A stretch of DNA of 64,000 nt from the sequence record OK272470.1. One strand, given 5' to 3'. The DNA comes from Escherichia phage JLBYU50. This document shows positions 20,527-30,232 of the stretch, piece after piece (the stretch's first letter is position 1; each line of letters opens with the position of its first letter). The translations under genes were made by a program, and so were the position numbers. A model generated the notes under the pieces. That model was not told the origin of the DNA and did not search any database. It was given only the letters and a program-made list of their open reading frames with translations.

Positions 20527-21036
20527 TTAGCGATAGAATTGATGTTCTTTGTAGCGGTACACTAGAACCATATCTTTTTCCCAGTGTGCTCTTATTGTAG
20601 ATTTTTTAAAGTATAATGCTCCTTTTGTAATATCTAATGCAATTCGTAATTCTGGAAAATGCGTATCGAGATAAAGTAGACGTTCTGCTATAGCCTTAGC
20701 TTCCTTCCACTTATCACGTTCCATAACGTTGAATGTCTTTGTGTAAGAGAATTGTCCTTTTTGAAACAAAACTTCTTTTATAGTATCAGGGAAATATGAA
20801 TCTCTAGCCCTATTCAATACTACATTACCAACAGCAGACATACCGCGCTTTCCTTGATTACGACTTTCTGCATAGATTGCACAAGCTAATAGATTTTCTT
20901 TACTATCACGCTTTGTACACTTGTGAACTACTTTAGCAGTTTTTACGTTTGCAGCTTCGGCTTGCGCCACAACAGGTGTAAATGTAAAAGCAGTTAAGGA
21001 TAGTAACGCAATTGCGACAAAGGTTTTTATTGACAA
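20527..21036 (-). CDS. Secreted cell-wall hydrolase, SleB-like (Hydrolase_2 family)
   Basis: 169 aa. N-terminal signal peptide (MSIKTFVAIALLSLTAFTFTPVVAQA). Motif ACAIYAESRNQGKRGMSAVGNVVLNRA resembles the SleB/CwlJ catalytic domain. Confidence 0.6.
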   Translation of the reverse strand: MSIKTFVAIALLSLTAFTFTPVVAQAEAANVKTAKVVHKCTKRDSKENLLACAIYAESRNQGKRGMSAVGNVVLNRARDSYFPDTIKEVLFQKGQFSYTKTFNVMERDKWKEAKAIAERLLYLDTHFPELRIALDITKGALYFKKSTIRAHWEKDMVLVYRYKEHQFYR

Positions 21037-21128
21037 ACTTGCCTCCTATTTTGTTAAACGAACTTTTATTGTAACACAGAAGAGGCTGTTTTGCAAGTGG
21101 AGGGGGATTATCCCCCTCTTAGACTCTG

Positions 21129-21731
21129 TTAGATATTGTAAACCTTTGTATGAGTTACTACACCATCTTCTACAAAATCAACACGTTCTTGATCCGTAAC
21201 TAGTGCAGACAATACTTTAAATTTAATTTTTACACGTTCAAAAGCTGGTTGACCATCTTTAAGATAATTATGTTCAGTTGTCACTGTCTTGTTTACAAAA
21301 TCAACTTTTGCTTTACCGTTTTCGCGTAAATGGAATGTTTTTCCTGCTTTATACACAATTTCAACATTGCCTTCGAGAGTAATTCCTTCAAAAAGTTCAC
21401 CCTCTTCTTCATTTTCTTCACTTTTGAACAGACGACGAAACTCTTCCATATCAAGATAAACAACATCTTCAGAATAACTATCAGTAAGGTATGTCTTACC
21501 ATCCATTAACCCGAAATATTGCCAGATCGCAGAATAAACATCACTGGTTGATCCAAGGGTTTCTCTGAGTTTAGTTCCACGGATTACTTCATAAACTTCA
21601 AAATTGAAACCAGACTGCAAAGCATTAAACAGTACATCACTAACTTCTAAAGCATAATCTTCATTGTTGTCAATATCCACAAGAAAATTACCGCTACGAA
21701 TAAGTTTTTGACCTTCTAAAGTAATACCCAT
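21129..21731 (-). CDS. Hypothetical protein
   Basis: 200 aa ORF upstream of the SleB-like gene in the Ter-like cluster. No motif recognised. Confidence 0.45.
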   Translation of the reverse strand: MGITLEGQKLIRSGNFLVDIDNNEDYALEVSDVLFNALQSGFNFEVYEVIRGTKLRETLGSTSDVYSAIWQYFGLMDGKTYLTDSYSEDVVYLDMEEFRRLFKSEENEEEGELFEGITLEGNVEIVYKAGKTFHLRENGKAKVDFVNKTVTTEHNYLKDGQPAFERVKIKFKVLSALVTDQERVDFVEDGVVTHTKVYNI

Positions 21732-21783
21732 TGTTTTCTCCTCTTTTATTTAAAATATGCGCCCCGAAGGGCGCTATGATTTA

Positions 21784-22380
21784 TTACTCGAACCAATCGT
21801 CGCCAGCGCCAAACGCTTTAACTACATCGTAAATGTCAAGCCCAGCTTTACCTACACCATATGCTTTCAGTTTCCATTCGTTATCTTCTCGCACCAGGGA
21901 GGCAACGTGGCAAATGGTATTACCTGCAAGTTCTGGAGCCAAGAAGTCAAAATCCAGCAGTTCAACGTTACGTTCATCATCGAAGATTTTAAGGAAACCT
22001 TCGGTAGCGTGACCAAGGCGTTTCTTACCCGTTTCGTCATCAATAGTAATTACGAATGCAATTTCCTGTGCTTCAGCAGAGATATTATCCAGTGTAACAT
22101 CAATCTGCTCCATTTGTCCTACACCATCACGAACATCTTCACCTGCAAAAGTAGAACGTTCAGGATCAAATTTCTGCGCGTAGCACACCAGGTGACGAGG
22201 AGACAACAGTTCCGGCAGACCAGATGCATTGTGTCGGCAAATCAGAGCACTAACATCCAGATCCAGTTTTTCGTTAGATTTCCAAGAGAATTCCAGACGA
22301 ATGCGTTTCAGTGCTGGTGCAATCTTTTTCAGAGAAACTTTTTCGCTAGAACCTTTTTTCAGGGAAATTTTCTGAGTCAT
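21784..22380 (-). CDS. terD: TerD-family protein (tellurite-resistance TerD/TerE/TerZ-like)
   Basis: 198 aa. N-terminal duplicated ISLKKG...VSLKK, IRLEFSWKS and LDLDVSALI blocks match the TerD fold signature. Acidic Ca-binding-like patch (TIDDETGKK). Confidence 0.7.
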   Translation of the reverse strand: MTQKISLKKGSSEKVSLKKIAPALKRIRLEFSWKSNEKLDLDVSALICRHNASGLPELLSPRHLVCYAQKFDPERSTFAGEDVRDGVGQMEQIDVTLDNISAEAQEIAFVITIDDETGKKRLGHATEGFLKIFDDERNVELLDFDFLAPELAGNTICHVASLVREDNEWKLKAYGVGKAGLDIYDVVKAFGAGDDWFE

Positions 22381-22452
22381 AATTTATTATCTCCTTTGTT
22401 GTTAATTTACGTTGTCTATTTTACTAATCTTTTCTACAAAGTCAAGCGTTTT

Positions 22453-23247
22453 TTACGCTTTTGCTCCAAATTTTTTAACCCACTCACCAAACTCTTCGGA
22501 TAACAGTTTATCGTAAAGTTCTTCATCAGACAAGGACAAATCTGCAATACCGATAAAATCAACATTATCGTATTCTTTTGCCAAGTCTTTCAGGAATTTA
22601 AAGTTTGCATTACCTACACCAACCATAAACCAGTAAACAGGTGTATTGCGGTGTTTGTTCAGTAAGCTACGTACTGCTGAAGTATCCATGTTCTCCCCGT
22701 CAGTTTGGAAGAAAATCATTGCAGGAGTACGATCAACTTGTGCATCAGTATCTACAACCTGTTCTACAACAGTACGTGTTACTTCTACAAGTTCTTTTTT
22801 ACCAGTTAGTTTAGCAAGGAAACCTTTAGCTGGAACTTCTTCATACTCAACGACTTCGCGTGTAATATTTTTCATAGGTACACTACCGAAGTATGTATCA
22901 TAAATGTCTTGCATTACTGGAGCATAAGCTGTACCACCATTGATGCAAACATTAGACATACAAGAGCCGACATAATCATCATATACATCAGCCGTTGCAG
23001 GAGGCAGTTCAAAAGAAGAACTATTGAAAGCCCACATGTCAATCTGCGCATTATCATCAAACTTCATACCAAACGGCAGCAGCTTACCTACAAAATCACT
23101 AACAGTGCCATCACGATATAGCTCACACATACTACCCGAAATATCTAAGGCGCTACCGACACGAAGAACAACATCGTTAATCTTTTTCTTACGCAGAGAT
23201 ACAGTAAGAGTTTCTTGACGTTTTTTAAGACTGATTTTATTGGACAT
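22453..23247 (-). CDS. von Willebrand factor A (vWA) domain protein, TerY-like
   Basis: 264 aa. N-terminal ISLKK motif then MIDAS-like DxSxS (VGSALDISGSM) and vWA beta-strands (MIFFQTDGEN; VYWFMVGVG). Confidence 0.6.
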   Translation of the reverse strand: MSNKISLKKRQETLTVSLRKKKINDVVLRVGSALDISGSMCELYRDGTVSDFVGKLLPFGMKFDDNAQIDMWAFNSSSFELPPATADVYDDYVGSCMSNVCINGGTAYAPVMQDIYDTYFGSVPMKNITREVVEYEEVPAKGFLAKLTGKKELVEVTRTVVEQVVDTDAQVDRTPAMIFFQTDGENMDTSAVRSLLNKHRNTPVYWFMVGVGNANFKFLKDLAKEYDNVDFIGIADLSLSDEELYDKLLSEEFGEWVKKFGAKA

Positions 23248-23248
23248 A

Positions 23249-23518
23249 TTATTTCTCCTTTCTGACTGTAATGTTAGTAACTTCTAAATCCACTTCTACC
23301 ACTTCTGTATCATATAAAATACAGTTAAGTTGACCTCTTTGTGAACCGTTCAGACACATTGCTTGGTTTGTATTAACCTTAATAAACACTAAGTTTATGA
23401 ACGTATCTAAACCAGAATCTTGATAGGCAACATAATATACAAATGTATCACCTGTGTCAAGTTCTCCAAAACATTTAGGTTCATCTGATTTGTCGTCTTT
23501 GATATTAAATTTAAGCAC
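23249..23518 (-). CDS. Hypothetical protein
   Basis: 89 aa ORF in the Ter-like cluster. Confidence 0.4.
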   Translation of the reverse strand: MLKFNIKDDKSDEPKCFGELDTGDTFVYYVAYQDSGLDTFINLVFIKVNTNQAMCLNGSQRGQLNCILYDTEVVEVDLEVTNITVRKEK

Positions 23519-24074
23519 TGTCTTCTCCTTTACCTGCTCTCAAGCCTAAATAGAAAGCCTCTCTGGTGATTTTTTGCAACTCGTTTAAAGAGATAGTTAC
23601 AACTAAATCATCTTCAATTTCTAGCTTTGAGTCTTCTTCTGTCTCAATGCAAGTATTATGCACTTTGTGGTAAGGATTGTCAACACGTTTAAATTTATTA
23701 TTTTCAGTGCTGAAGAAGCAATCTGGATCTTCTTCTCCATCACCCCAACCCTGGTTAGGGTCTTCTTCAGATCTTTCTGTTGGGATCTCACCTGTAAAGT
23801 GCTCTTCTAATACCAGAGCAATCCCATCTCCAAGATCGGAAGAGAACATCAAATTACAAACTTCTTCCCAAGGCATAGACCACTTAAATCTTTTACGATT
23901 GCCATGTTTATCTTCTTCGTTAGAGAAAACACTACCATAGCTATCATAATTGCCATACATCTCTTCAACAACTTTACCACCTTTCAAAAGAAATAGGTAG
24001 CAAGGAGAGCCATCGAAAGAGGTAGAAAGAGCAGCATTACCAGACTCTTTGCACAAGAAACTAAAACACCCCAT
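23511..24074 (-). CDS. Hypothetical acidic protein
   Basis: 187 aa, Cys/acidic-rich. No motif recognised. Confidence 0.45.
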   Translation of the reverse strand: MGCFSFLCKESGNAALSTSFDGSPCYLFLLKGGKVVEEMYGNYDSYGSVFSNEEDKHGNRKRFKWSMPWEEVCNLMFSSDLGDGIALVLEEHFTGEIPTERSEEDPNQGWGDGEEDPDCFFSTENNKFKRVDNPYHKVHNTCIETEEDSKLEIEDDLVVTISLNELQKITREAFYLGLRAGKGEDSA

Positions 24075-24274
24075 TATACACCAACCTTAAGATCAATTAT
24101 AGCCAAAGTGGTTTCAGAGTGTGTTTGCTCGTCTACAGGTGCAGTCATGTGATAATACAAAAAATCTTCGGCATCATACCAATCTGACTCTTGACCTTGT
24201 TTCCAACCATCAATGAAAGCATCTTCCATAATTGTTTGTAACTCTTCACGAGTTAAGTGAATATCTTTACTCAT
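24074..24274 (-). CDS. Hypothetical small acidic protein
   Basis: 66 aa ORF, ATGA-type coupling to neighbours. Confidence 0.35.
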   Translation of the reverse strand: MSKDIHLTREELQTIMEDAFIDGWKQGQESDWYDAEDFLYYHMTAPVDEQTHSETTLAIIDLKVGV

Positions 24275-24507
24275 TACACATTCTCCTCTTTTACCAATTC
24301 CATCGTTGAACTATCAAAACCATCTTTAGAAGAATAGGTATAGACAGAACGTAGTTCTCGCAGGACAGTGAATACATTGGGATCATCTAACCAAGCATCC
24401 TGGAGGAGAACATAACGATCTTCATTGTCGTACTGGACAGCAATCATAGAACCAGACAGTTTGTAAATTTTAATATTCATAATATATTTCTCCTTAAAGT
24501 AGACCAC
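24274..24507 (-). CDS. Hypothetical small protein (start uncertain)
   Basis: 77 aa ORF overlapping the TelA-like gene 3' end; an internal start is possible. Confidence 0.35.
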   Translation of the reverse strand: MVYFKEKYIMNIKIYKLSGSMIAVQYDNEDRYVLLQDAWLDDPNVFTVLRELRSVYTYSSKDGFDSSTMELVKEENV

Positions 24508-25597
24508 GTTTAACAGTTTGAATCATACCATCTTCAAGAGATTGCACTTCTTGAATGTAATCAATACGCGCAGCACGGGCTTCAGTGTTGATTCGGTTAG
24601 TTTCTTCCAACATTTTAACTAAGTTTTCTTGATCGCGACGTAATGTCTCAATATCCAATACTTGACGATTAGCAAGTTGTGTAGCTTCAATTTGGTTTTG
24701 TGCCGCCAGATCACTACCCATTGCAATAGCAGCATTAAATTCATTCAGCACATTGTTCTGTGTATCGGCTGCTTTCTTCTGGCGTAGACTTTCAATATAC
24801 ATAGAAAAGTTTGCAGAGTAAGCAGGGATAACATTATTCACAATATTACGGGCTGATCGCATCAAACTTGCAGATACTTTCTGCATACTTTGTACACGTG
24901 GCCCCATCTGAACACACAGTAAGCGTAGGGCTTTCAGGTCTGCAATACGAATTTCAAGCAGATCCATAGTATCACGAGTACGTTGACGCTCTTCTACCTC
25001 ATTTTCAGGCAGTGTATTAAGGCGAACTTCTTCTTTTTCATACGTAGCTGTTAGAAGCTCTATATCTCTGTTTAAGCTAAGAGCATATTTGGCAATAGCC
25101 TCTTCTAAACGTTGCAGATATCGTAAAGAATCTTCTTCTTTTTTCAAGTCTGTTTGGAGTGTCTTTACCAAACCTTCAATACGATTATTGATGGTGTCAA
25201 ATTCTCCAAACAAATCTTCTTTCATACCTAATACTTTCTTAACTAGTTTACCTAAGCCTTTAGATTGCTTAATAGAGTTAGGATCAAGTTGCTTTGCTTG
25301 CTTAATAAGTGCAGTTAAACGTTCACTCATTTCATCCCCCTGAGATGAACGCTGGTGTTTAAGCACTTCAGCATTAAGGTTACGAAGAGTAAGTCCTGCA
25401 TCAGCACCAACTTGTTCAATCTCTTCACGAGACATTGGAGGCAGCATTTGTACAGGTCGTGCAACAGCAGGGGCATATACAGGGCTTGCATCCATAGCAC
25501 TTGGAGCAAATAAAGACTTACTTTTTTCTGTTGTTGCCGTGAATACACTCATTTCAGACGGTTTGCTTTTTACGGCACTGATAAAAGGACTGGACAT
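24494..25597 (-). CDS. telA: TelA-like toxic-anion-resistance family protein
   Basis: 367 aa, largely coiled-coil. C-terminal block QVLDIETLRRDQENLVKMLEE...AARIDYIQE resembles the conserved TelA/KlaB region. Confidence 0.55.
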   Translation of the reverse strand: MSSPFISAVKSKPSEMSVFTATTEKSKSLFAPSAMDASPVYAPAVARPVQMLPPMSREEIEQVGADAGLTLRNLNAEVLKHQRSSQGDEMSERLTALIKQAKQLDPNSIKQSKGLGKLVKKVLGMKEDLFGEFDTINNRIEGLVKTLQTDLKKEEDSLRYLQRLEEAIAKYALSLNRDIELLTATYEKEEVRLNTLPENEVEERQRTRDTMDLLEIRIADLKALRLLCVQMGPRVQSMQKVSASLMRSARNIVNNVIPAYSANFSMYIESLRQKKAADTQNNVLNEFNAAIAMGSDLAAQNQIEATQLANRQVLDIETLRRDQENLVKMLEETNRINTEARAARIDYIQEVQSLEDGMIQTVKRGLL

Positions 25598-25665
25598 TCA
25601 ATTTCCTCCATATTCTTTAGTAGATGGTGATACCTCTGTACCACCATCATAACACAAATTAAGTA

Positions 25666-26517
25666 TTAAACAAACATATCTAAATAATTTGTAGTAATAA
25701 ACGCCCCATCTGCTTCCAGATTAACATAACCAGTAGCATTAGTGGTTAAGAAATCCAGATCGAAGGACTCTTTAACACCCCGTACCTCAACACGAGAGAT
25801 ATCGAATACAGGTAGTGTAACAGCCTCTTCGTGCAATACCGTACCTTTGTAGGTTGCCTTAATGATAAACTTGATATTACCCGTTCCAGCATCATACAAA
25901 ACACTTTCAAACCCTTTGAGAGTATATTTATCACCAGAAGTGAAGTGCAAAGTTGCTTTGTTTACAGTACGTTTTTTACGAGGAGTTCCTTTCACACGTT
26001 TATGATCACTACGTTTTTTGTACTTAGGAATGAATACAAACGATACATTCTGAAGAAAGGTATCAACATCAAGGATTTTAATATCCTCTGTTGCAGCAAA
26101 TTTTGAAGTCGTTGCATCAAAATGCTTTTCCCTGCGATCATACATAAAGATATCAAACCGATCTTCTAAATCAAACAAATTATGTATTTTAATTTCAGAA
26201 TGCTTGCGCATTGCAGCAACCTTGAACTCTTCAAAACGTGGGTGTTCTACAAGTTCTTCAAGTTTTACACCAAAGACAGTATATTGCTTCGGAGTTTTTT
26301 CTGGTGTTGGCATTACAGAAGCATAATCCCCGATTGCGCTCTTAAAGCAAAATTGTTCTTGACCTGTATTTTTACCAACGAATTTACAGTATTCATCATT
26401 GTGCATACTTTCCTTAGTAGTACCAACAAACTCAAAACCATCTTTATTCTTCTCAAGAATTTCTTGATTAAAGATCCAACCTTCCAGGCGATACACTTTA
26501 CCAACTTCTAGTTTCAT
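25666..26517 (-). CDS. Hypothetical protein
   Basis: 283 aa with a basic patch (KKRSDHKRVKGTPRKKRT). No motif recognised. Confidence 0.45.
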   Translation of the reverse strand: MKLEVGKVYRLEGWIFNQEILEKNKDGFEFVGTTKESMHNDEYCKFVGKNTGQEQFCFKSAIGDYASVMPTPEKTPKQYTVFGVKLEELVEHPRFEEFKVAAMRKHSEIKIHNLFDLEDRFDIFMYDRREKHFDATTSKFAATEDIKILDVDTFLQNVSFVFIPKYKKRSDHKRVKGTPRKKRTVNKATLHFTSGDKYTLKGFESVLYDAGTGNIKFIIKATYKGTVLHEEAVTLPVFDISRVEVRGVKESFDLDFLTTNATGYVNLEADGAFITTNYLDMFV

Positions 26518-26552
26518 CTGTTTCTCCTTCTTATTTAATCTGTATTAAATTA

Positions 26553-27143
26553 TTAACGACGACGTGAGCTACTAAAACTACGTTTCGACGAAGAATAACT
26601 TTTCGAAGACTTACTATAAGAGCTAATAGGACTTGAGTAAGACTTACGAGCAGAGTAATCACTATTCACTTTTGTTGTTGATGGGCGTGAATACGTTTGT
26701 ACACTTTGCTGCTTAATTGTGTTTTGTTTAGTGGTTGTATATGTATTTCCTTGTTTATCATAAAAACTATGCTTTTGTGTTGTATATGCTTTGCTATTAG
26801 TTGTAGGAGCAGCGTTGTTATTGATAATTGTTGTATTGCTACCGCCATCTCTATAACCACCACCGCCACTATTACCACTCAACATATGACCAAGAAGCAT
26901 ACCTGTAGCAAACTCACCTACACCAGAAGAACCACTGCCGCCTCCTTGCACAACAACTGTTGAAGGTTGTGCAGGTGCTGCTTGAACAACTTGAGGTGCA
27001 GGTTGATTTACATATTGTTCATCTACCATCTGATTTGGTGTTTGTTGGTAACGTTGATTTTGTACATTTTCAGAATCATCACAACCTACCAGCAATACAC
27101 TACCTAAAACAACTGCAACAATAAAAGATTTAATGTTTTTCAT
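26553..27143 (-). CDS. Lipoprotein with Gly-rich and Ser/Tyr-rich low-complexity regions
   Basis: Start at MKNIKSF after RBS gagggt. Signal peptide with lipobox (LLVGC). Gly-zipper-like segment and Ser-rich basic C-terminus. Confidence 0.5.
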   Translation of the reverse strand: MKNIKSFIVAVVLGSVLLVGCDDSENVQNQRYQQTPNQMVDEQYVNQPAPQVVQAAPAQPSTVVVQGGGSGSSGVGEFATGMLLGHMLSGNSGGGGYRDGGSNTTIINNNAAPTTNSKAYTTQKHSFYDKQGNTYTTTKQNTIKQQSVQTYSRPSTTKVNSDYSARKSYSSPISSYSKSSKSYSSSKRSFSSSRRR

Positions 27144-27336
27144 TTGTAACCCTCTCATTTAAAGTCTCAACACAATTTTTAAAATCCCTAGAGAAACAAT
27201 ACATCTGTTCTCCGTTCCTGTTGATAGTAATTGTATGGTTATCAATATATGTTGTCAAGATAAAAATCAAACAAAACAACCCTAGAGCAAAACAAATATT
27301 TTCAAACAGAATCCAAAGAACACGTAAAACCACCAT
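27130..27336 (-). CDS. Small membrane protein
   Basis: 68 aa with one strongly hydrophobic helix (ICFALGLFCLIFILTTYI). Confidence 0.35.
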   Translation of the reverse strand: MVVLRVLWILFENICFALGLFCLIFILTTYIDNHTITINRNGEQMYCFSRDFKNCVETLNERVTNEKH

Positions 27337-27375
27337 CAGATCACCTCAATAAAGCCCCCGAAGGGGCTTAATGAA

Positions 27376-28353
27376 TTAAGCAACAGCCTGGTCTTCTTTT
27401 TCAGGGAAGATTAAACTTGCAATAACACCCAACCCAAGAGTACCTAACACAATATACATACTGATCGTCGGATCAATGTGTGCTGGTAGGAAACTCACTT
27501 TTGCGTGCAGAGTTTCTGCAAACGGGTGATACATCAGTTTTACACCCACAAATACCAGGACTACGATAACTGCTTTCTCCAGATGAACCAAATACTTCAG
27601 TGCAACACTAAGAACAAAGAACAGAGCGCGTAAACCTAAGATTGCACAGAGCATCGAAGAGAACACCAGCAGAGGTTCTTGTGTCACTGCAATTACTGCT
27701 GGAACAGAGTCTACTGCAAAGATTACGTCAACCATTTCCATTACAAACACACAAACCAGAGCCGGAGTTGCTACACGAACACCATTTTTGATTGTGAAGA
27801 ACTTCTCACCATCCATCTGATCAGATACAGGGAACAGCTTACGAACAATGCGAGTAGCCCAGTGTTTAGAGTAATCAACTTCTGCATCATTATCTCCAGC
27901 GAATACCATTTTAGCCGCACAGAAAAGGATGACAGCACCGAAGAAGATATTAACATACCAGCCCAAACTCAACAAGTAAGTACCTACTGCTACAAACACA
28001 CCTCGGAAGACAATCGCACCTGCAATACCCCAAAGTAGAATCTTGTGTTGCAAGTGTGTGCTTTTAATACCAAAACTTGCGAATACTGCCACAAATACTA
28101 CTAAGTTATCTACAGAAAGAGATTTCTCCAACACATACCCACTCAAGAACAAACTCGCAAAATCAGCACCGTGTTGGAAGTATACAAAACCATAGTAGGC
28201 TAATGATACCCCAATCCAGAAAATTGACCAACCAACTGCCGATTTAAATGAAATCTCTTTGTTTTCTCTGTGTCCAAAGAAATCAATACAAATCGACAAC
28301 ACTAAAATACCCACTAAAACAACCACATCAATAATTGGGAAACCCAGTTGCAT
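27376..28353 (-). CDS. terC: TerC-family integral membrane protein
   Basis: 325 aa polytopic membrane protein. Signature motif EKSLSVDN and several further TM helices. Terminator-like hairpin upstream at 28372-28390. Confidence 0.8.
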   Translation of the reverse strand: MQLGFPIIDVVVLVGILVLSICIDFFGHRENKEISFKSAVGWSIFWIGVSLAYYGFVYFQHGADFASLFLSGYVLEKSLSVDNLVVFVAVFASFGIKSTHLQHKILLWGIAGAIVFRGVFVAVGTYLLSLGWYVNIFFGAVILFCAAKMVFAGDNDAEVDYSKHWATRIVRKLFPVSDQMDGEKFFTIKNGVRVATPALVCVFVMEMVDVIFAVDSVPAVIAVTQEPLLVFSSMLCAILGLRALFFVLSVALKYLVHLEKAVIVVLVFVGVKLMYHPFAETLHAKVSFLPAHIDPTISMYIVLGTLGLGVIASLIFPEKEDQAVA

Positions 28354-28430
28354 TCTTTTCTCCTCTTTAATGCGGAGGACAATCCTCCGCTCTATGTCTT
28401 ATACTATAAACTGTTTTTAAAGAAAGTCAA

Positions 28431-28692: not shown

Positions 28693-28899
28693 TTATTTGT
28701 TAGATTGAAAGATACCACGGAGTACCGCAAGAATGAACGTCACACAGACTACACTCCAAAACGTTACAGGAACATGATGCCAGTCTAAGCCGATAATGTC
28801 AATCATATAATTGTATGCTAAAAGCAGTAGCCAACTAGGGATTAACACAATCAAGAACACAACAATAAAACAACCTAATACTGCTAAAACACCTGCCAT
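28693..28899 (-). CDS. Small membrane protein (two predicted TM helices)
   Basis: 68 aa with two hydrophobic segments; holin-like topology cannot be excluded. Confidence 0.4.
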   Translation of the reverse strand: MAGVLAVLGCFIVVFLIVLIPSWLLLLAYNYMIDIIGLDWHHVPVTFWSVVCVTFILAVLRGIFQSNK

Positions 28900-28908
28900 A
28901 CTTTCTCC

Positions 28909-29286
28909 TTATTTCAGTTTGTAAACAATTACATTTAAACCTTTGTTTACTAGAGTTTCTTCGATCATAAGTTTTACAATATTCCAAGAACCTCCAGCCA
29001 AACCACAACCAAGCATTGGTAAACCTACAATTTTACCGCCTGAAGATACAACATCGTCTCCCATACTATCTAGCGCATTGTAGATAGCTTCATAATTCAG
29101 GTCACGCTTACCTTCCTCACGACGACTATAACCATATTGTCCATATAAATTATAAATTGTCAAATTGTTTTCTGTATATTTGGTAAACGTACCTAATTTT
29201 TTATAATCACCACGTTTAGTGGCACAATCTGCTTTAAACGCACCAGGCCACTTGCTTTTAATTTTTGGTGCAATACCACTACCCAT
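28909..29286 (-). CDS. Hypothetical protein with weak macro-domain-like Gly-rich motifs
   Basis: 125 aa. MGSGIAPKI and GCGLAGGSW loosely resemble the phosphate-binding loops of macro (ADP-ribose-binding) domains. Shorter than a canonical macro domain; tentative. Confidence 0.3.
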   Translation of the reverse strand: MGSGIAPKIKSKWPGAFKADCATKRGDYKKLGTFTKYTENNLTIYNLYGQYGYSRREEGKRDLNYEAIYNALDSMGDDVVSSGGKIVGLPMLGCGLAGGSWNIVKLMIEETLVNKGLNVIVYKLK

Positions 29287-30232
29287 AGTGCAAAAACAGT
29301 TGAAGATGCTCTTCTCCTGACTTATGGTCTACAGCTACAACATAACGATTACCGCTAAACAAACCTTGTGCTGTCATACCGTCAATATCGGTATCTGCCG
29401 AAACATCTCCTGTACGATCTACACCGTTAACTTTCAGGAGTTTAACTTCTTTTGCAGCATAGCGGTGTTCAGTAATACTGATACCCATTAATGCAAGTGC
29501 ATCAGAGAATTTGTCATTAGGGTAACGGTTAAGTTCTTCTACTAGTGACTGAACAATATCAAAGTTCAAGTCCACGGAAAGATTATAAAGCGTTTCAAAA
29601 TCTGGTAAAAAGGCTTTGTTCTCCAGATTTTTAGCCAGATAGTCATCCATAGTAGCTTTAGGTAGTTTCTTATAGCTAAAGCTGTAGAAAATACGGCTAG
29701 GACGATTACGCAAAAATTCTGATACATAACCATCATTTTTAGTCAATACAAACAGCTTGTCATAGCCACCAACACCATCCAGCAGGGTAAGCAAACCATC
29801 CTGTGCATCTTTTTCAGCATACAGTTTATCAAATTCATCGATCATAATCATCACAGGTTGTGTGATTTTAGACATAAAATTGATAAAGCCTTCACCATTA
29901 AAAGCACTACCGATAGAAATAGTAGGAATACCCATTTCACGAAGAGCAGAAGATAGCATTTTAGCTTGCAAAGTTTTACCGCTACCCTTCGTACCCTCAA
30001 GGAGAACACCTGTGTTTTTACCTTTGCGGCTAAGGAACGTCTTGATAATACGTTCTGATTTATCATCAGTATCACCGTATGTTACTGAAGGGACTTCCAT
30101 ATCGTTTTTAGGATACAGGAAGAACTCACCACTTTGAGTAACACCTACACCAAAAGTTCCTGCTGGAATTTCTTCAATATCTGTACCAGACTTCTGACGC
30201 AGGAAGATTTGATTGCCGAATACTGTAAACAT
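29279..30232 (-). CDS. AAA-family ATPase (paralog A)
   Basis: 317 aa. Walker A GTKGSGKT, Walker B MIMIDEFDK, classical-AAA second region LLTLLDG and NRPSR. About 45% identical by eye to 44210-45337. Confidence 0.7.
   Translation of the reverse strand: MFTVFGNQIFLRQKSGTDIEEIPAGTFGVGVTQSGEFFLYPKNDMEVPSVTYGDTDDKSERIIKTFLSRKGKNTGVLLEGTKGSGKTLQAKMLSSALREMGIPTISIGSAFNGEGFINFMSKITQPVMIMIDEFDKLYAEKDAQDGLLTLLDGVGGYDKLFVLTKNDGYVSEFLRNRPSRIFYSFSYKKLPKATMDDYLAKNLENKAFLPDFETLYNLSVDLNFDIVQSLVEELNRYPNDKFSDALALMGISITEHRYAAKEVKLLKVNGVDRTGDVSADTDIDGMTAQGLFSGNRYVVAVDHKSGEEHLQLFLHYG

Follow-up and report, generated by a model that had tools for sequence, protein, structure and literature searches.

A conserved Ter gene set in Escherichia phage JLBYU50 and a deletion beside terC in this isolate

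The window analysed here comprises 64,000 nucleotides of Escherichia phage JLBYU50 (sequence record OK272470.1), a phi92-like member of Justusliebigvirus and a virulent myovirus of E. coli. The minus-strand block at 20527-28353 of this window is identified with high confidence as a shortened form of the Ter stress-response system of bacteria that is borne by phages, consisting of TerC, TelA, a TerF-type vWA protein and TerD, and with the same high confidence as a Ter gene set conserved across the subfamily Stephanstirmvirinae. The block is a known feature and not a novel one, because it is present and annotated in more than 130 sequenced relatives and is discussed in the phage literature. The sole novelty emerging from the analysis is a deletion next to terC. 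As to function, the Ter set would most likely act as an early-expressed, metal-dependent inner-membrane complex that protects or closes the envelope.

All genes named in the earlier note, which was made from the sequence alone, were found on the minus strand where it had placed them. Its four Ter assignments held, with the Pfam threshold exceeded in every case and that of NCBIfam for TerC as well. TerC (27376-28353, 325 aa) matches PF03741 with E 1e-38 (133 bits, cutoff 27.8) and TIGR03718, the NCBIfam model 'TerC/Alx family metal homeostasis membrane protein', with 323 bits (cutoff 246.4). Hydropathy gives about eight hydrophobic segments in a multi-pass topology. The protein carries the motifs LEKSLSVDN and FAVDSVPA, the EKSLSVDN signature remarked on before being residues 76-83, and shares 47% identity along its whole length with TerC of an E. 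coli plasmid ter operon, with both motifs kept. Profile scores, membrane topology and paired motifs place it among the TerC/Alx-family integral membrane proteins, and it is predicted to be a metal-translocating protein of the inner membrane. TelA (24494-25597, 367 aa) is assigned by PF05816 (E 5e-34, 118 bits, cutoff 30), with residues 57-362 aligned to positions 13-330 of the 332 in the profile, and by PHROG 5890, 'tellurite resistance'. The nearest bacterial TelA/YaaN proteins share just 21-27% identity with it. No solved TelA structure was found; an AF2 model of low confidence (pLDDT 59) predicts long helices and 50 disordered residues at the N-terminus. The vWA protein (22453-23247, 264 aa) exceeds the threshold of the vWA-TerF-like profile PF10138 (E 1e-38, 133.9 bits, cutoff 29.4) and has a complete MIDAS motif of the DxSxS, T, D form (D35-x-S37-x-S39, T106, D183), which is invariant in an alignment of four phage homologues. 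Its identity to E. coli TerF is 28%, over the C-terminal half of the latter (residues 177-404, inter-domain linker included). The TerD-like N-terminus described earlier is real: 11 of the first 20 residues are identical to those of TerD, KISLKK among them.

TerD (21784-22380, 198 aa) is assigned by PF02342 (E 4e-28, 98.6 bits, cutoff 25.3; residues 5-180) and matches the solved structures 2KXT (Klebsiella TerD, E 8e-15) and 3IBZ (E 8e-13). In an NMR study of Klebsiella TerD, the loop GDN(R/L)TGEGDGDDE was reportedly found to bind Ca2+. This canonical loop is not present in phage TerD. In the 2KXT match, GDNRTGEGDGDDE is aligned with GED-VRDGVGQME, in which three acidic residues of the second half are changed to V, Q or M or deleted; the DLD motif is kept. 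With the loop degenerate, canonical Ca2+ sensing may not apply.

The degenerate loop would suit a reading of the block as a bacterial ter locus that was acquired horizontally and is decaying into non-functional remnants, as would the tolerance of the isolate to the loss of the adjoining PRTase_3 and HAD genes described below. Such decay is barely credible in view of the remaining evidence. The four Ter ORFs are intact in at least 131 genomes of two genera, and the MIDAS and TerC motifs are conserved. Compared with phi92, the four genes show 63 synonymous and 9 nonsynonymous differences in total (TelA 19 and 2, TerC 16 and 4, TerD 12 and 1), an excess that effectively refutes decay, and compared with ESCO13 their dN/dS is 0.07-0.17. 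These values indicate strong purifying selection on the four Ter genes, which argues that they are functional.

The block of 7.8 kb shows 97.5-98.7% nucleotide identity over its full length in 54 deposited genomes and is the same as phi92 gp170-gp182. It is syntenic in 77 Phapecoctavirus genomes, and an annotation as tellurite/tellurium resistance already exists; in ESCO13, which belongs to that genus, synteny is gene for gene and the Ter proteins are 67-81% identical to those of JLBYU50. The four-family set was found in 176-244 of 50,697 phage records. Sets of TerC, TerD, TerF-vWA and TelA have already been published from jumbo phages, phiPsa374 and phiKp34, and superinfection exclusion was put forward as their function (PMC7824862 and PMC9796965 among the sources). 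The set is thus not unexpected on a phage, as had been supposed, since it is common in relatives and already annotated and discussed. The possibility raised at the same time, that this is a common and already characterized module, holds for its occurrence and annotation but not for experimental characterization, and no experiments on any phage Ter module were found in the literature searched. Two phages unrelated to this one, phiPsa374 and Caulobacter phage CcrSC, have the same four families in compact operons, so the clustering of Ter genes is not a matter of chance.

The four families are shared with phiPsa374 (Otagovirus, gp11-15), CcrSC (gp435-438), phiKp34 (gp124-135) and the jumbo phages (PMC7824862), all of which, like JLBYU50, are virulent and lack TerB. 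The phiPsa374-type operons consist of four to five adjacent genes, whereas in JLBYU50 the Ter genes extend over 6.6 kb and have eight other ORFs between them, and the proteins are only 21-33% identical. The membrane protein of CcrSC is of the DUF475 type, TerC of phiPsa374 is short (223 aa), and TerD of both phages keeps the DNRxG...DDE loop, which JLBYU50 TerD does not have. In comparison with the enterobacterial locus (terZABCDEF with terWXY and biosynthetic genes, on IncHI2 plasmids and O157 islands), identity is 28% for TerD, besides the values for TerC and the vWA protein given above. In agreement with the earlier note, Pfam profiles gave no match to TerB among the 20 ORFs scanned at 19.8-30.2 kb, and TerZ, TerA and TerE, which belong to the minimal resistance operon, are absent from the scanned block. 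ATP-grasp, HpcH aldolase, StiP and TerW of the enterobacterial locus are also missing. The vWA protein does not have the N-terminal TerD domain of TerF, and TelA is present in JLBYU50 but not in the enterobacterial plasmid locus. The chromosomal stress operon yceCDEFGH of Bacillus subtilis encodes three TerD paralogues, a TerC (MeeF) and a TelA (YceH). This operon resembles JLBYU50 in combining TerD, TerC and TelA without TerB, but it has no TerF-type vWA gene and is chromosomal rather than phage-borne.

Neither Pfam nor NCBIfam gave a match for the interleaved ORFs, which in this sense were rightly called unannotatable. Four small ORFs (77, 66, 187 and 89 aa) between telA and the vWA gene (23249-24507) are probably co-transcribed, because their stop and start codons overlap or abut. 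Phapecoctavirus keeps those of 187, 89 and 66 aa but not the 77-aa ORF. The variable segment between terC and telA (25666-27336) encodes a 283-aa protein (25666-26517), a glycine/serine-rich lipoprotein (26553-27143) and a 68-aa protein with a single TM segment by hydropathy (27130-27336); its ESCO13 homologues are weak or partial, at 35-49% identity. Among 1.84 billion representative proteins, only 16 clusters are related to the 283-aa protein. For the lipoprotein, which had been predicted before, a lipobox (LLVGC) was found; it differs from phi92 by 9 synonymous and 1 nonsynonymous change. The proposal that the co-clustered proteins are new Ter partners found little to sustain it. Most of these proteins are either lineage-specific or, like the 187-aa protein and the hydrolase described below, common in phages that have no Ter genes; the family of the 187-aa protein is widespread in phages and occurs outside Ter contexts. 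A 200-aa ORF (21129-21731) is confined to Justusliebigvirus among the matches listed, with at least 94% identity in all of the at least 120 matches listed; it has no ESCO13 homologue and differs from phi92 by 11 synonymous and 14 nonsynonymous changes. None of the interleaved ORFs was detected by phmmer in the Ter locus of CcrSC, and by gene length alone none fits into the compact phiPsa374 operon.

The SleB-like peptidoglycan hydrolase (20527-21036) was correctly recognized, with a Pfam Hydrolase_2 match of E 6.5e-20 and an N-terminal hydrophobic signal sequence. It belongs to PHROG 938, endolysin. In phage BME3 the SleB-like hydrolase is described as the second of two endolysins, and the same Justusliebigvirus paper places another endolysin, of lysozyme type, in the structural module (PMC12210895). 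With its domain confirmed, the hydrolase is a candidate for lysis beside the lysozyme-type endolysin. Its membership of the Ter module, as first claimed, is ruled out by homologues in 1,147 phage records, mostly from groups without Ter genes; T5-like, rV5-like and PVP-SE1 phages have hydrolase homologues but no matches to TelA, the vWA protein or TerC. The small ORFs, the lipoprotein and the hydrolase appear to be ordinary early-region neighbours of the Ter genes and candidate components at most.

The promoters reported here are predictions, made solely by matching the sigma-70 consensus. One (TTGACT-16-TATAGT, 28430-28403) lies in the gap upstream of terC, with a leader hairpin, GCGGAGGA-TTGT-CCTCCGC (28390-28372), after it, the two together spanning 28372-28430; no riboswitch was detected. 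Another (TTGACT-16-TAAAAT, 22445-22418) precedes terD, which has a predicted terminator-like hairpin, GCGCCC-TTCG-GGGCGC with a T-rich tail (21774-21759). The consensus scan points to several transcription units in the block rather than one operon. From such promoters, host RNA polymerase would transcribe the Ter genes early in infection. TerC would be inserted in the inner membrane, and on it the cytoplasmic vWA protein, TerD and TelA would build a layer beneath the membrane, dependent on divalent metal. This layer would alter membrane permeability, and the infected cell would then resist later insults to the inner membrane, for example a pore-forming toxin or a superinfecting phage injecting its DNA. 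The proposed effect matches the phenotype of bacterial ter operons, which inhibit phages and confer resistance to colicins A, B and K according to work cited in PMC9933665. Phage Ter operons have been proposed to counter superinfecting phages (PMC7824862), and the membrane-associated module with a possible exclusion or envelope role put forward in the earlier note coincides with this published hypothesis. A functional analogy, with no sequence or structural relationship to Ter proteins, is offered by T4 Imm/Sp and further superinfection-exclusion proteins of phages, which act early and at the membrane to shut the infected cell against secondary infection, as phage Ter genes are proposed to do. 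The recurrence of the four-gene set in unrelated phages, the purifying selection, the intact MIDAS and the predicted promoters ahead of terC and terD speak for the membrane layer. The degenerate Ca2+-binding loop of TerD, the division into several transcription units, the occurrence of TerC alone in some phages and the lack of a matching PADLOC defence model speak against it. The mechanism as such is held with moderate confidence; block identity and membrane layer taken together, as one explanation, come slightly short of an even chance.

The TIGR03718 score of TerC, above the curated cutoff of a metal homeostasis model, and the intact MIDAS also suit a set of metal-handling auxiliaries, in which TerC would export Mn2+ or another divalent metal and load Sec-exported proteins, like TerC/Alx/MeeF, with TerD, the vWA protein and TelA as cytoplasmic metal-binding accessories. 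The phage would benefit through the export or correct metal loading of its envelope proteins (e.g. the hydrolase and the lipoprotein) or through metal control in the cytoplasm during infection. There is a precedent in B. subtilis, whose TerC proteins are associated with the SecYEG holotranslocon and supply exported enzymes with Mn2+ (PMC10550928). The block itself encodes two Sec-exported proteins, and some Proteus, Pectobacterium and Vibrio phages have TerC without matches to TelA or the vWA protein, which fits a stand-alone metal-transport role equally well. This explanation is unlikely, if deserving of serious weight: it leaves unexplained why four unrelated phage groups carry TelA, the vWA protein and TerD together with TerC, and the hydrolase is widespread in phages without TerC. 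SleB-type hydrolases have no known metal requirement. Moreover, the E. coli host already has a TerC-family protein of its own, Alx.

The early-type promoters, as predicted, would also serve counter-defence, in which the Ter set would keep the inner membrane intact and energized until programmed lysis and so blunt abortive-infection effectors that depolarize or perforate it. According to PMC9933665 a bacterial ter operon raises membrane-stress tolerance in addition to its protection against the colicins, and in jumbo gut phages terD genes are highly transcribed, one of them beside a pspA-like membrane-repair gene (PMC12880540). This evidence is wholly indirect, however, no block protein matched a known anti-defence family, and the predictions overlap those of the membrane layer, from which this role may not be separable; it is considered rather improbable. 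PADLOC gave no defence model matching the block. A benefit to the host, as a moron conferring tellurite, xenobiotic or oxidative-stress resistance on cells in a pseudolysogenic or carrier state, has been raised as a possibility (PMC7824862), and Klebsiella TerC contributes to tellurite and zinc resistance (PMC12054061). It is very improbable here: the phage group is virulent, nothing related to lysogeny was seen in the annotated region, four genes of the minimal resistance operon (TerB, TerZ, TerA and TerE) are missing from the ORFs scanned, and the authors of the phiPsa374 study thought it unlikely that the same set of genes confers resistance to tellurium (PMC9796965).

The set had been described as near-complete. 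The four Ter genes are real, but the PRTase_3, HAD and macrodomain genes of the relatives have been lost by deletion. BLASTN against phi92 revealed that 2,460 bp are missing at the junction 29301|29302, where the alignments of all 54 relatives break; none of these has the deletion. The junction is also present in an independent read assembly (SRR25464451). The scar (28909-30232, minus strand) is made up of a truncated macrodomain ORF (125 aa, 28909-29286) and a truncated AAA ATPase ORF (317 aa, 29279-30232). PRTase_3, HAD, an HTH gene and a small ORF are removed, while the macrodomain protein has lost its N-terminus and the AAA ATPase its C-terminus. In phi92, PRTase_3 (E 6e-41), HAD (E 1e-5) and a macrodomain gene lie beside terC, and the same genes adjoin terC in ESCO13. 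PRTase and HAD genes next to terC are common to the bacterial ter locus and the phage relatives, with no detectable similarity between phage and plasmid HAD. PRTase_3 and HAD form the proposed nucleoside-signal biosynthesis part of Ter systems in the summary of Anantharaman et al. (2012) given in PMC7824862. Of the parts that define a complete Ter system in that summary, TerB is missing among the 20 ORFs scanned and the PRTase/HAD pair is missing from the window, the latter because of the 2,460-bp deletion. If the Ter core still acts in this isolate, it would do so without PRTase_3, HAD and macrodomain input.

All protein families named for the Ter block (window 20527-28353, minus strand, 7.8 kb) in the earlier note were confirmed by profile searches. 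These are TerD (21784-22380, minus strand; PF02342, E 4e-28), a TerF-type vWA protein (22453-23247, minus strand; PF10138, E 1e-38), TelA (24494-25597, minus strand; PF05816, E 5e-34), TerC (27376-28353, minus strand; PF03741, E 1e-38) and a Hydrolase_2/SleB-like enzyme (20527-21036, minus strand), for which hydropathy also indicated an N-terminal signal sequence. The earlier description also holds for the lipoprotein (lipobox LLVGC) and for the ORFs that cannot be annotated. The block, which is part of a long minus-strand gene run, lies between glycosyltransferase genes and the anaerobic ribonucleotide reductase genes nrdD/nrdG. TerC scored 323 bits against a cutoff of 246 for the NCBIfam 'TerC/Alx family metal homeostasis membrane protein', and shares 47% identity along its entire length with TerC of an E. 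coli plasmid ter operon, with both signature motifs kept. In the vWA protein the MIDAS motif is complete in the alignment (D35-x-S37-x-S39, T106, D183). The idea that terC was captured recently from E. coli was rejected, as nucleotide identity to the plasmid terC is about 68% and extends over 195 bp only.

The same 7.8-kb block is present at full length, with 97.5-98.7% identity, in 54 deposited Justusliebigvirus genomes (phi92, muut, alia, PaulScherrer and others), and is gene-for-gene syntenic in 77 genomes of Phapecoctavirus, the other Stephanstirmvirinae genus compared. Protein identities to ESCO13, a representative of the latter, are 79% for TelA, 71% for TerC, 67% for the vWA protein and 81% for TerD. 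TerC of most Phapecoctavirus is about 71% identical to that of the window, whereas phiWec188 and vB_EcoM-P3322 reach about 95%; this pattern suggests that terC has recombined between the two genera. Four records labelled 'Campylobacter phage' with the host C. jejuni (MG065639, MG065645, MG065656 and MG065689) are 97.8% identical to the Ter block, and probably represent mislabelled or contaminant phages.

Among 50,697 phage records searched with tblastn, homologues were found in 244 for TelA, 182 for the TerF-type vWA protein and 176 for TerC of the window type. In two unrelated phages from other groups, the four families are combined in compact operons: TelA, an 84-aa ORF, vWA, TerC and TerD in phiPsa374 (Otagovirus), and TelA, vWA, a DUF475/TerC-type protein and TerD in Caulobacter phage CcrSC. 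Records of the relatives already bear the labels 'tellurite resistance', 'tellurium resistance protein TerC', 'putative stress protein' and 'vWA domain-containing protein', and a metagenome paper from 2015 listed gp172, gp173 and gp178 of phi92 as TerD, TerD and tellurite-resistance proteins. The presence of the same gene set in a virulent phage was pointed out for phiKp34 and for phiPsa374 (PMC9796965), and terD genes of gut jumbo phages were reported in 2026 to be highly transcribed (PMC12880540). The claim that a near-complete Ter set on a virulent phage is unexpected therefore fails: this is a known phage Ter block, widely sequenced and already discussed. It is common and has been described, but not characterised; no experiments on any phage Ter module were found in the literature search. 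The suggestion of a phage-controlled envelope system, active for instance in superinfection exclusion, is reasonable but not original; use of phage Ter genes against superinfecting phages has been proposed (PMC7824862).

The four Ter genes have diverged from those of phi92, the reference relative, mainly at synonymous sites, with 12 synonymous and 1 nonsynonymous differences in terD, 16 and 2 in the vWA gene, 19 and 2 in telA, and 16 and 4 in terC. Against ESCO13, dN/dS values are 0.07-0.17. From these substitution patterns, the four genes are judged to be functional, and the alternative that they are non-functional remnants is ruled out by the selection acting on them. TerD has an unusual feature in its loop, which reads GDNRTGEGDGDDE in the canonical form of Klebsiella TerD and GED-VRDGVGQME in the window. 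The acidic second half of the loop (residues about 78-92) is degenerate in Justusliebigvirus and Phapecoctavirus, including ESCO13, whereas TerD of phiPsa374 and CcrSC keeps the canonical acidic loop. The canonical loop is reported to bind Ca2+ from an NMR study of TerD, and this binding may have been lost in the window TerD. The N-terminus said to be shared by TerD and the vWA protein is real, with 11 of the first 20 residues identical, and this peptide of the vWA protein aligns to the interdomain linker of E. coli TerF, between its TerD and vWA domains.

The proposal that the other genes of the block encode new Ter partners was mostly not borne out. A total of 1,147 phage records contain homologues of the SleB-like hydrolase, among them T5-like, rV5-like and PVP-SE1 phages without Ter genes, and the enzyme was treated in a Justusliebigvirus paper as the second of two endolysins (PMC12210895). 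In the 187-aa ORF (23511-24074), about 135 N-terminal residues form a highly conserved domain (294 matches, 30 invariant columns) with the motifs MGCFSF-C, GNYDSYGRVF and DPNQGWG; in phage contigs this family sits beside genes for a metallophosphatase, a kinase or replication, and Ter genes are absent from the vicinity. Among the matches listed, the 200-aa ORF is restricted to Justusliebigvirus; it is fast-evolving, with 11 synonymous and 14 nonsynonymous differences from phi92. Its product is 100% identical to a protein of Escherichia phage JLBYU50, the probable source. For the 283-aa ORF, a search of 1.84 billion representative proteins gave just 16 related clusters. By phmmer, none of the unknown ORFs had a match in the CcrSC locus, and the phiPsa374 operon, compared by gene length only, has space for just one 84-aa ORF. 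Stop and start codons overlap or abut from telA through the 77-, 66-, 187- and 89-aa ORFs to the vWA gene. This tight packing favours co-expression of these genes, but is usual in phage early regions. The 89-aa ORF (23249-23518, minus strand) shows 8 nonsynonymous and 0 synonymous changes relative to its phi92 orthologue, which are small numbers, and may be under diversifying selection; ESCO13 carries two paralogues, 61% and 34% identical.

The lipoprotein (26553-27143, minus strand) contains a glycine-zipper-like stretch, GVGEFATGMLLGHMLSGNSGGGG, and a serine-rich basic tail, and has a weak match to DUF2076. Its sole ESCO13 counterpart is 35% identical. With 9 synonymous and 1 nonsynonymous differences from phi92, it is under purifying selection. 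On either side of terC a membrane protein of 68 aa is encoded. That at 28693-28899 (minus strand) has two hydrophobic segments and is a candidate holin, annotated as such in phage BME3; that at 27130-27336 (minus strand) has a single segment and a weak DUF6693 match. A spanin composed of a 68-aa transmembrane protein and the lipoprotein was rejected, the former being too short to cross the periplasm and the latter having no C-terminal transmembrane segment. No protein of the Ter block gave a meaningful PADLOC match to the models of known defence systems.

A consensus scan predicted near-consensus sigma-70-type promoters in two intergenic regions: TTGACT-16-TATAGT ahead of terC, with a leader hairpin behind it, and TTGACT-16-TAAAAT ahead of terD. 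A weaker promoter, with 9 of 12 hexamer positions and a TG-extended -10, was predicted upstream of the hydrolase gene, and 3' of terD a GC-rich hairpin leads into a T-rich tail. Based on this predicted layout of promoters and hairpins, the block comprises several transcription units, which are probably read early in infection by host RNA polymerase. No alx-type riboswitch was detected upstream of terC, either at the Rfam gathering threshold over the whole window or at relaxed thresholds on the leader.

The deletion of PRTase_3, HAD and macrodomain genes beside the block is the sole feature specific to the window. Relative to phi92, 2,460 bp are missing at a clean junction (29301/29302) without obvious microhomology, and 54 of 54 related genomes break exactly at this point. 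The same junction is present in an independent Logan read-set assembly of run SRR25464451, which shows that the deletion is real. An exact-sequence search also traced two proteins of the window to this one run. The deletion takes away the first 113 residues of the macrodomain protein and the final 76 of an AAA ATPase, together with a small ORF and the genes for a PRTase_3 phosphoribosyltransferase (PF15610, E 6e-41), a HAD hydrolase and an HTH protein; truncated macrodomain (28909-29286) and AAA ATPase (29279-30232) genes are left at the junction. The phi92 record (L001 17457-17544) carries a 'hypothetical tRNA' within the retained part of the ATPase gene; ARAGORN found no tRNA genes in window 1-64000. 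In ESCO13 the HAD, PRTase_3 and macrodomain genes are retained directly upstream of terC, so this trio is considered ancestral to the block of the subfamily. In the model of the Aravind group, PRTases and HAD phosphoesterases form the 'signal-biosynthesis' part of Ter systems (PMC7824862). The Ter system of the relatives is thus fuller than the earlier note supposed, and that of this isolate is shortened.

Bacterial ter operons are linked to phage inhibition, resistance to colicins A, B and K, and tolerance of membrane-active stress (PMC9933665). The four intact Ter proteins under selection, among them a TerC/Alx-type membrane protein and one with a complete metal-binding MIDAS site, and their joint recurrence in unrelated phages are the basis for a possible mechanism. 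The phage would express the Ter set early, TerC would nucleate a metal-dependent layer of TelA, vWA protein and TerD beneath the membrane, and this layer could make it harder for secondary DNA injection or pore formers to harm the inner membrane. The membrane might instead be stabilised against abortive-infection effectors; tellurite or xenobiotic resistance of benefit to the host is unlikely. TerC proteins are LysE-superfamily metal transporters with seven transmembrane segments that associate with the Sec holotranslocon (PMC10550928), and a TerC-centred metal export or exoenzyme metalation is a further alternative; phages of Proteus, Pectobacterium and Vibrio in which a TerC gene stands alone speak for it. 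A rather improbable reading is that the TerC-TelA-vWA-TerD core is a self-sufficient membrane gate or protector without the PRTase/HAD 'signal' genes.

How Ter systems work has been without an agreed explanation since the 1990s; they are tied to resistance against tellurite, colicins and phages and to gut fitness of Klebsiella. The window adds little, as it shares its Ter module with 54 sequenced relatives; its one useful addition is that PRTase_3, HAD and macrodomain genes next to the module have been deleted naturally. That the four-gene core is maintained under strong purifying selection in virulent phages of several unrelated groups argues that the core itself has a role in infection, and phi92-like phages are convenient for testing the core, since several grow on E. 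coli K-12. If the core were self-sufficient, the isolate would be a natural mutant lacking only the PRTase/HAD genes, it and its ~98%-identical relatives would make Ter function amenable to study in E. coli K-12, and the degenerate TerD loop and the N-terminal KISLKK peptide shared by TerD and the vWA protein would point to an assembly mechanism other than the Ca2+-sensing one.
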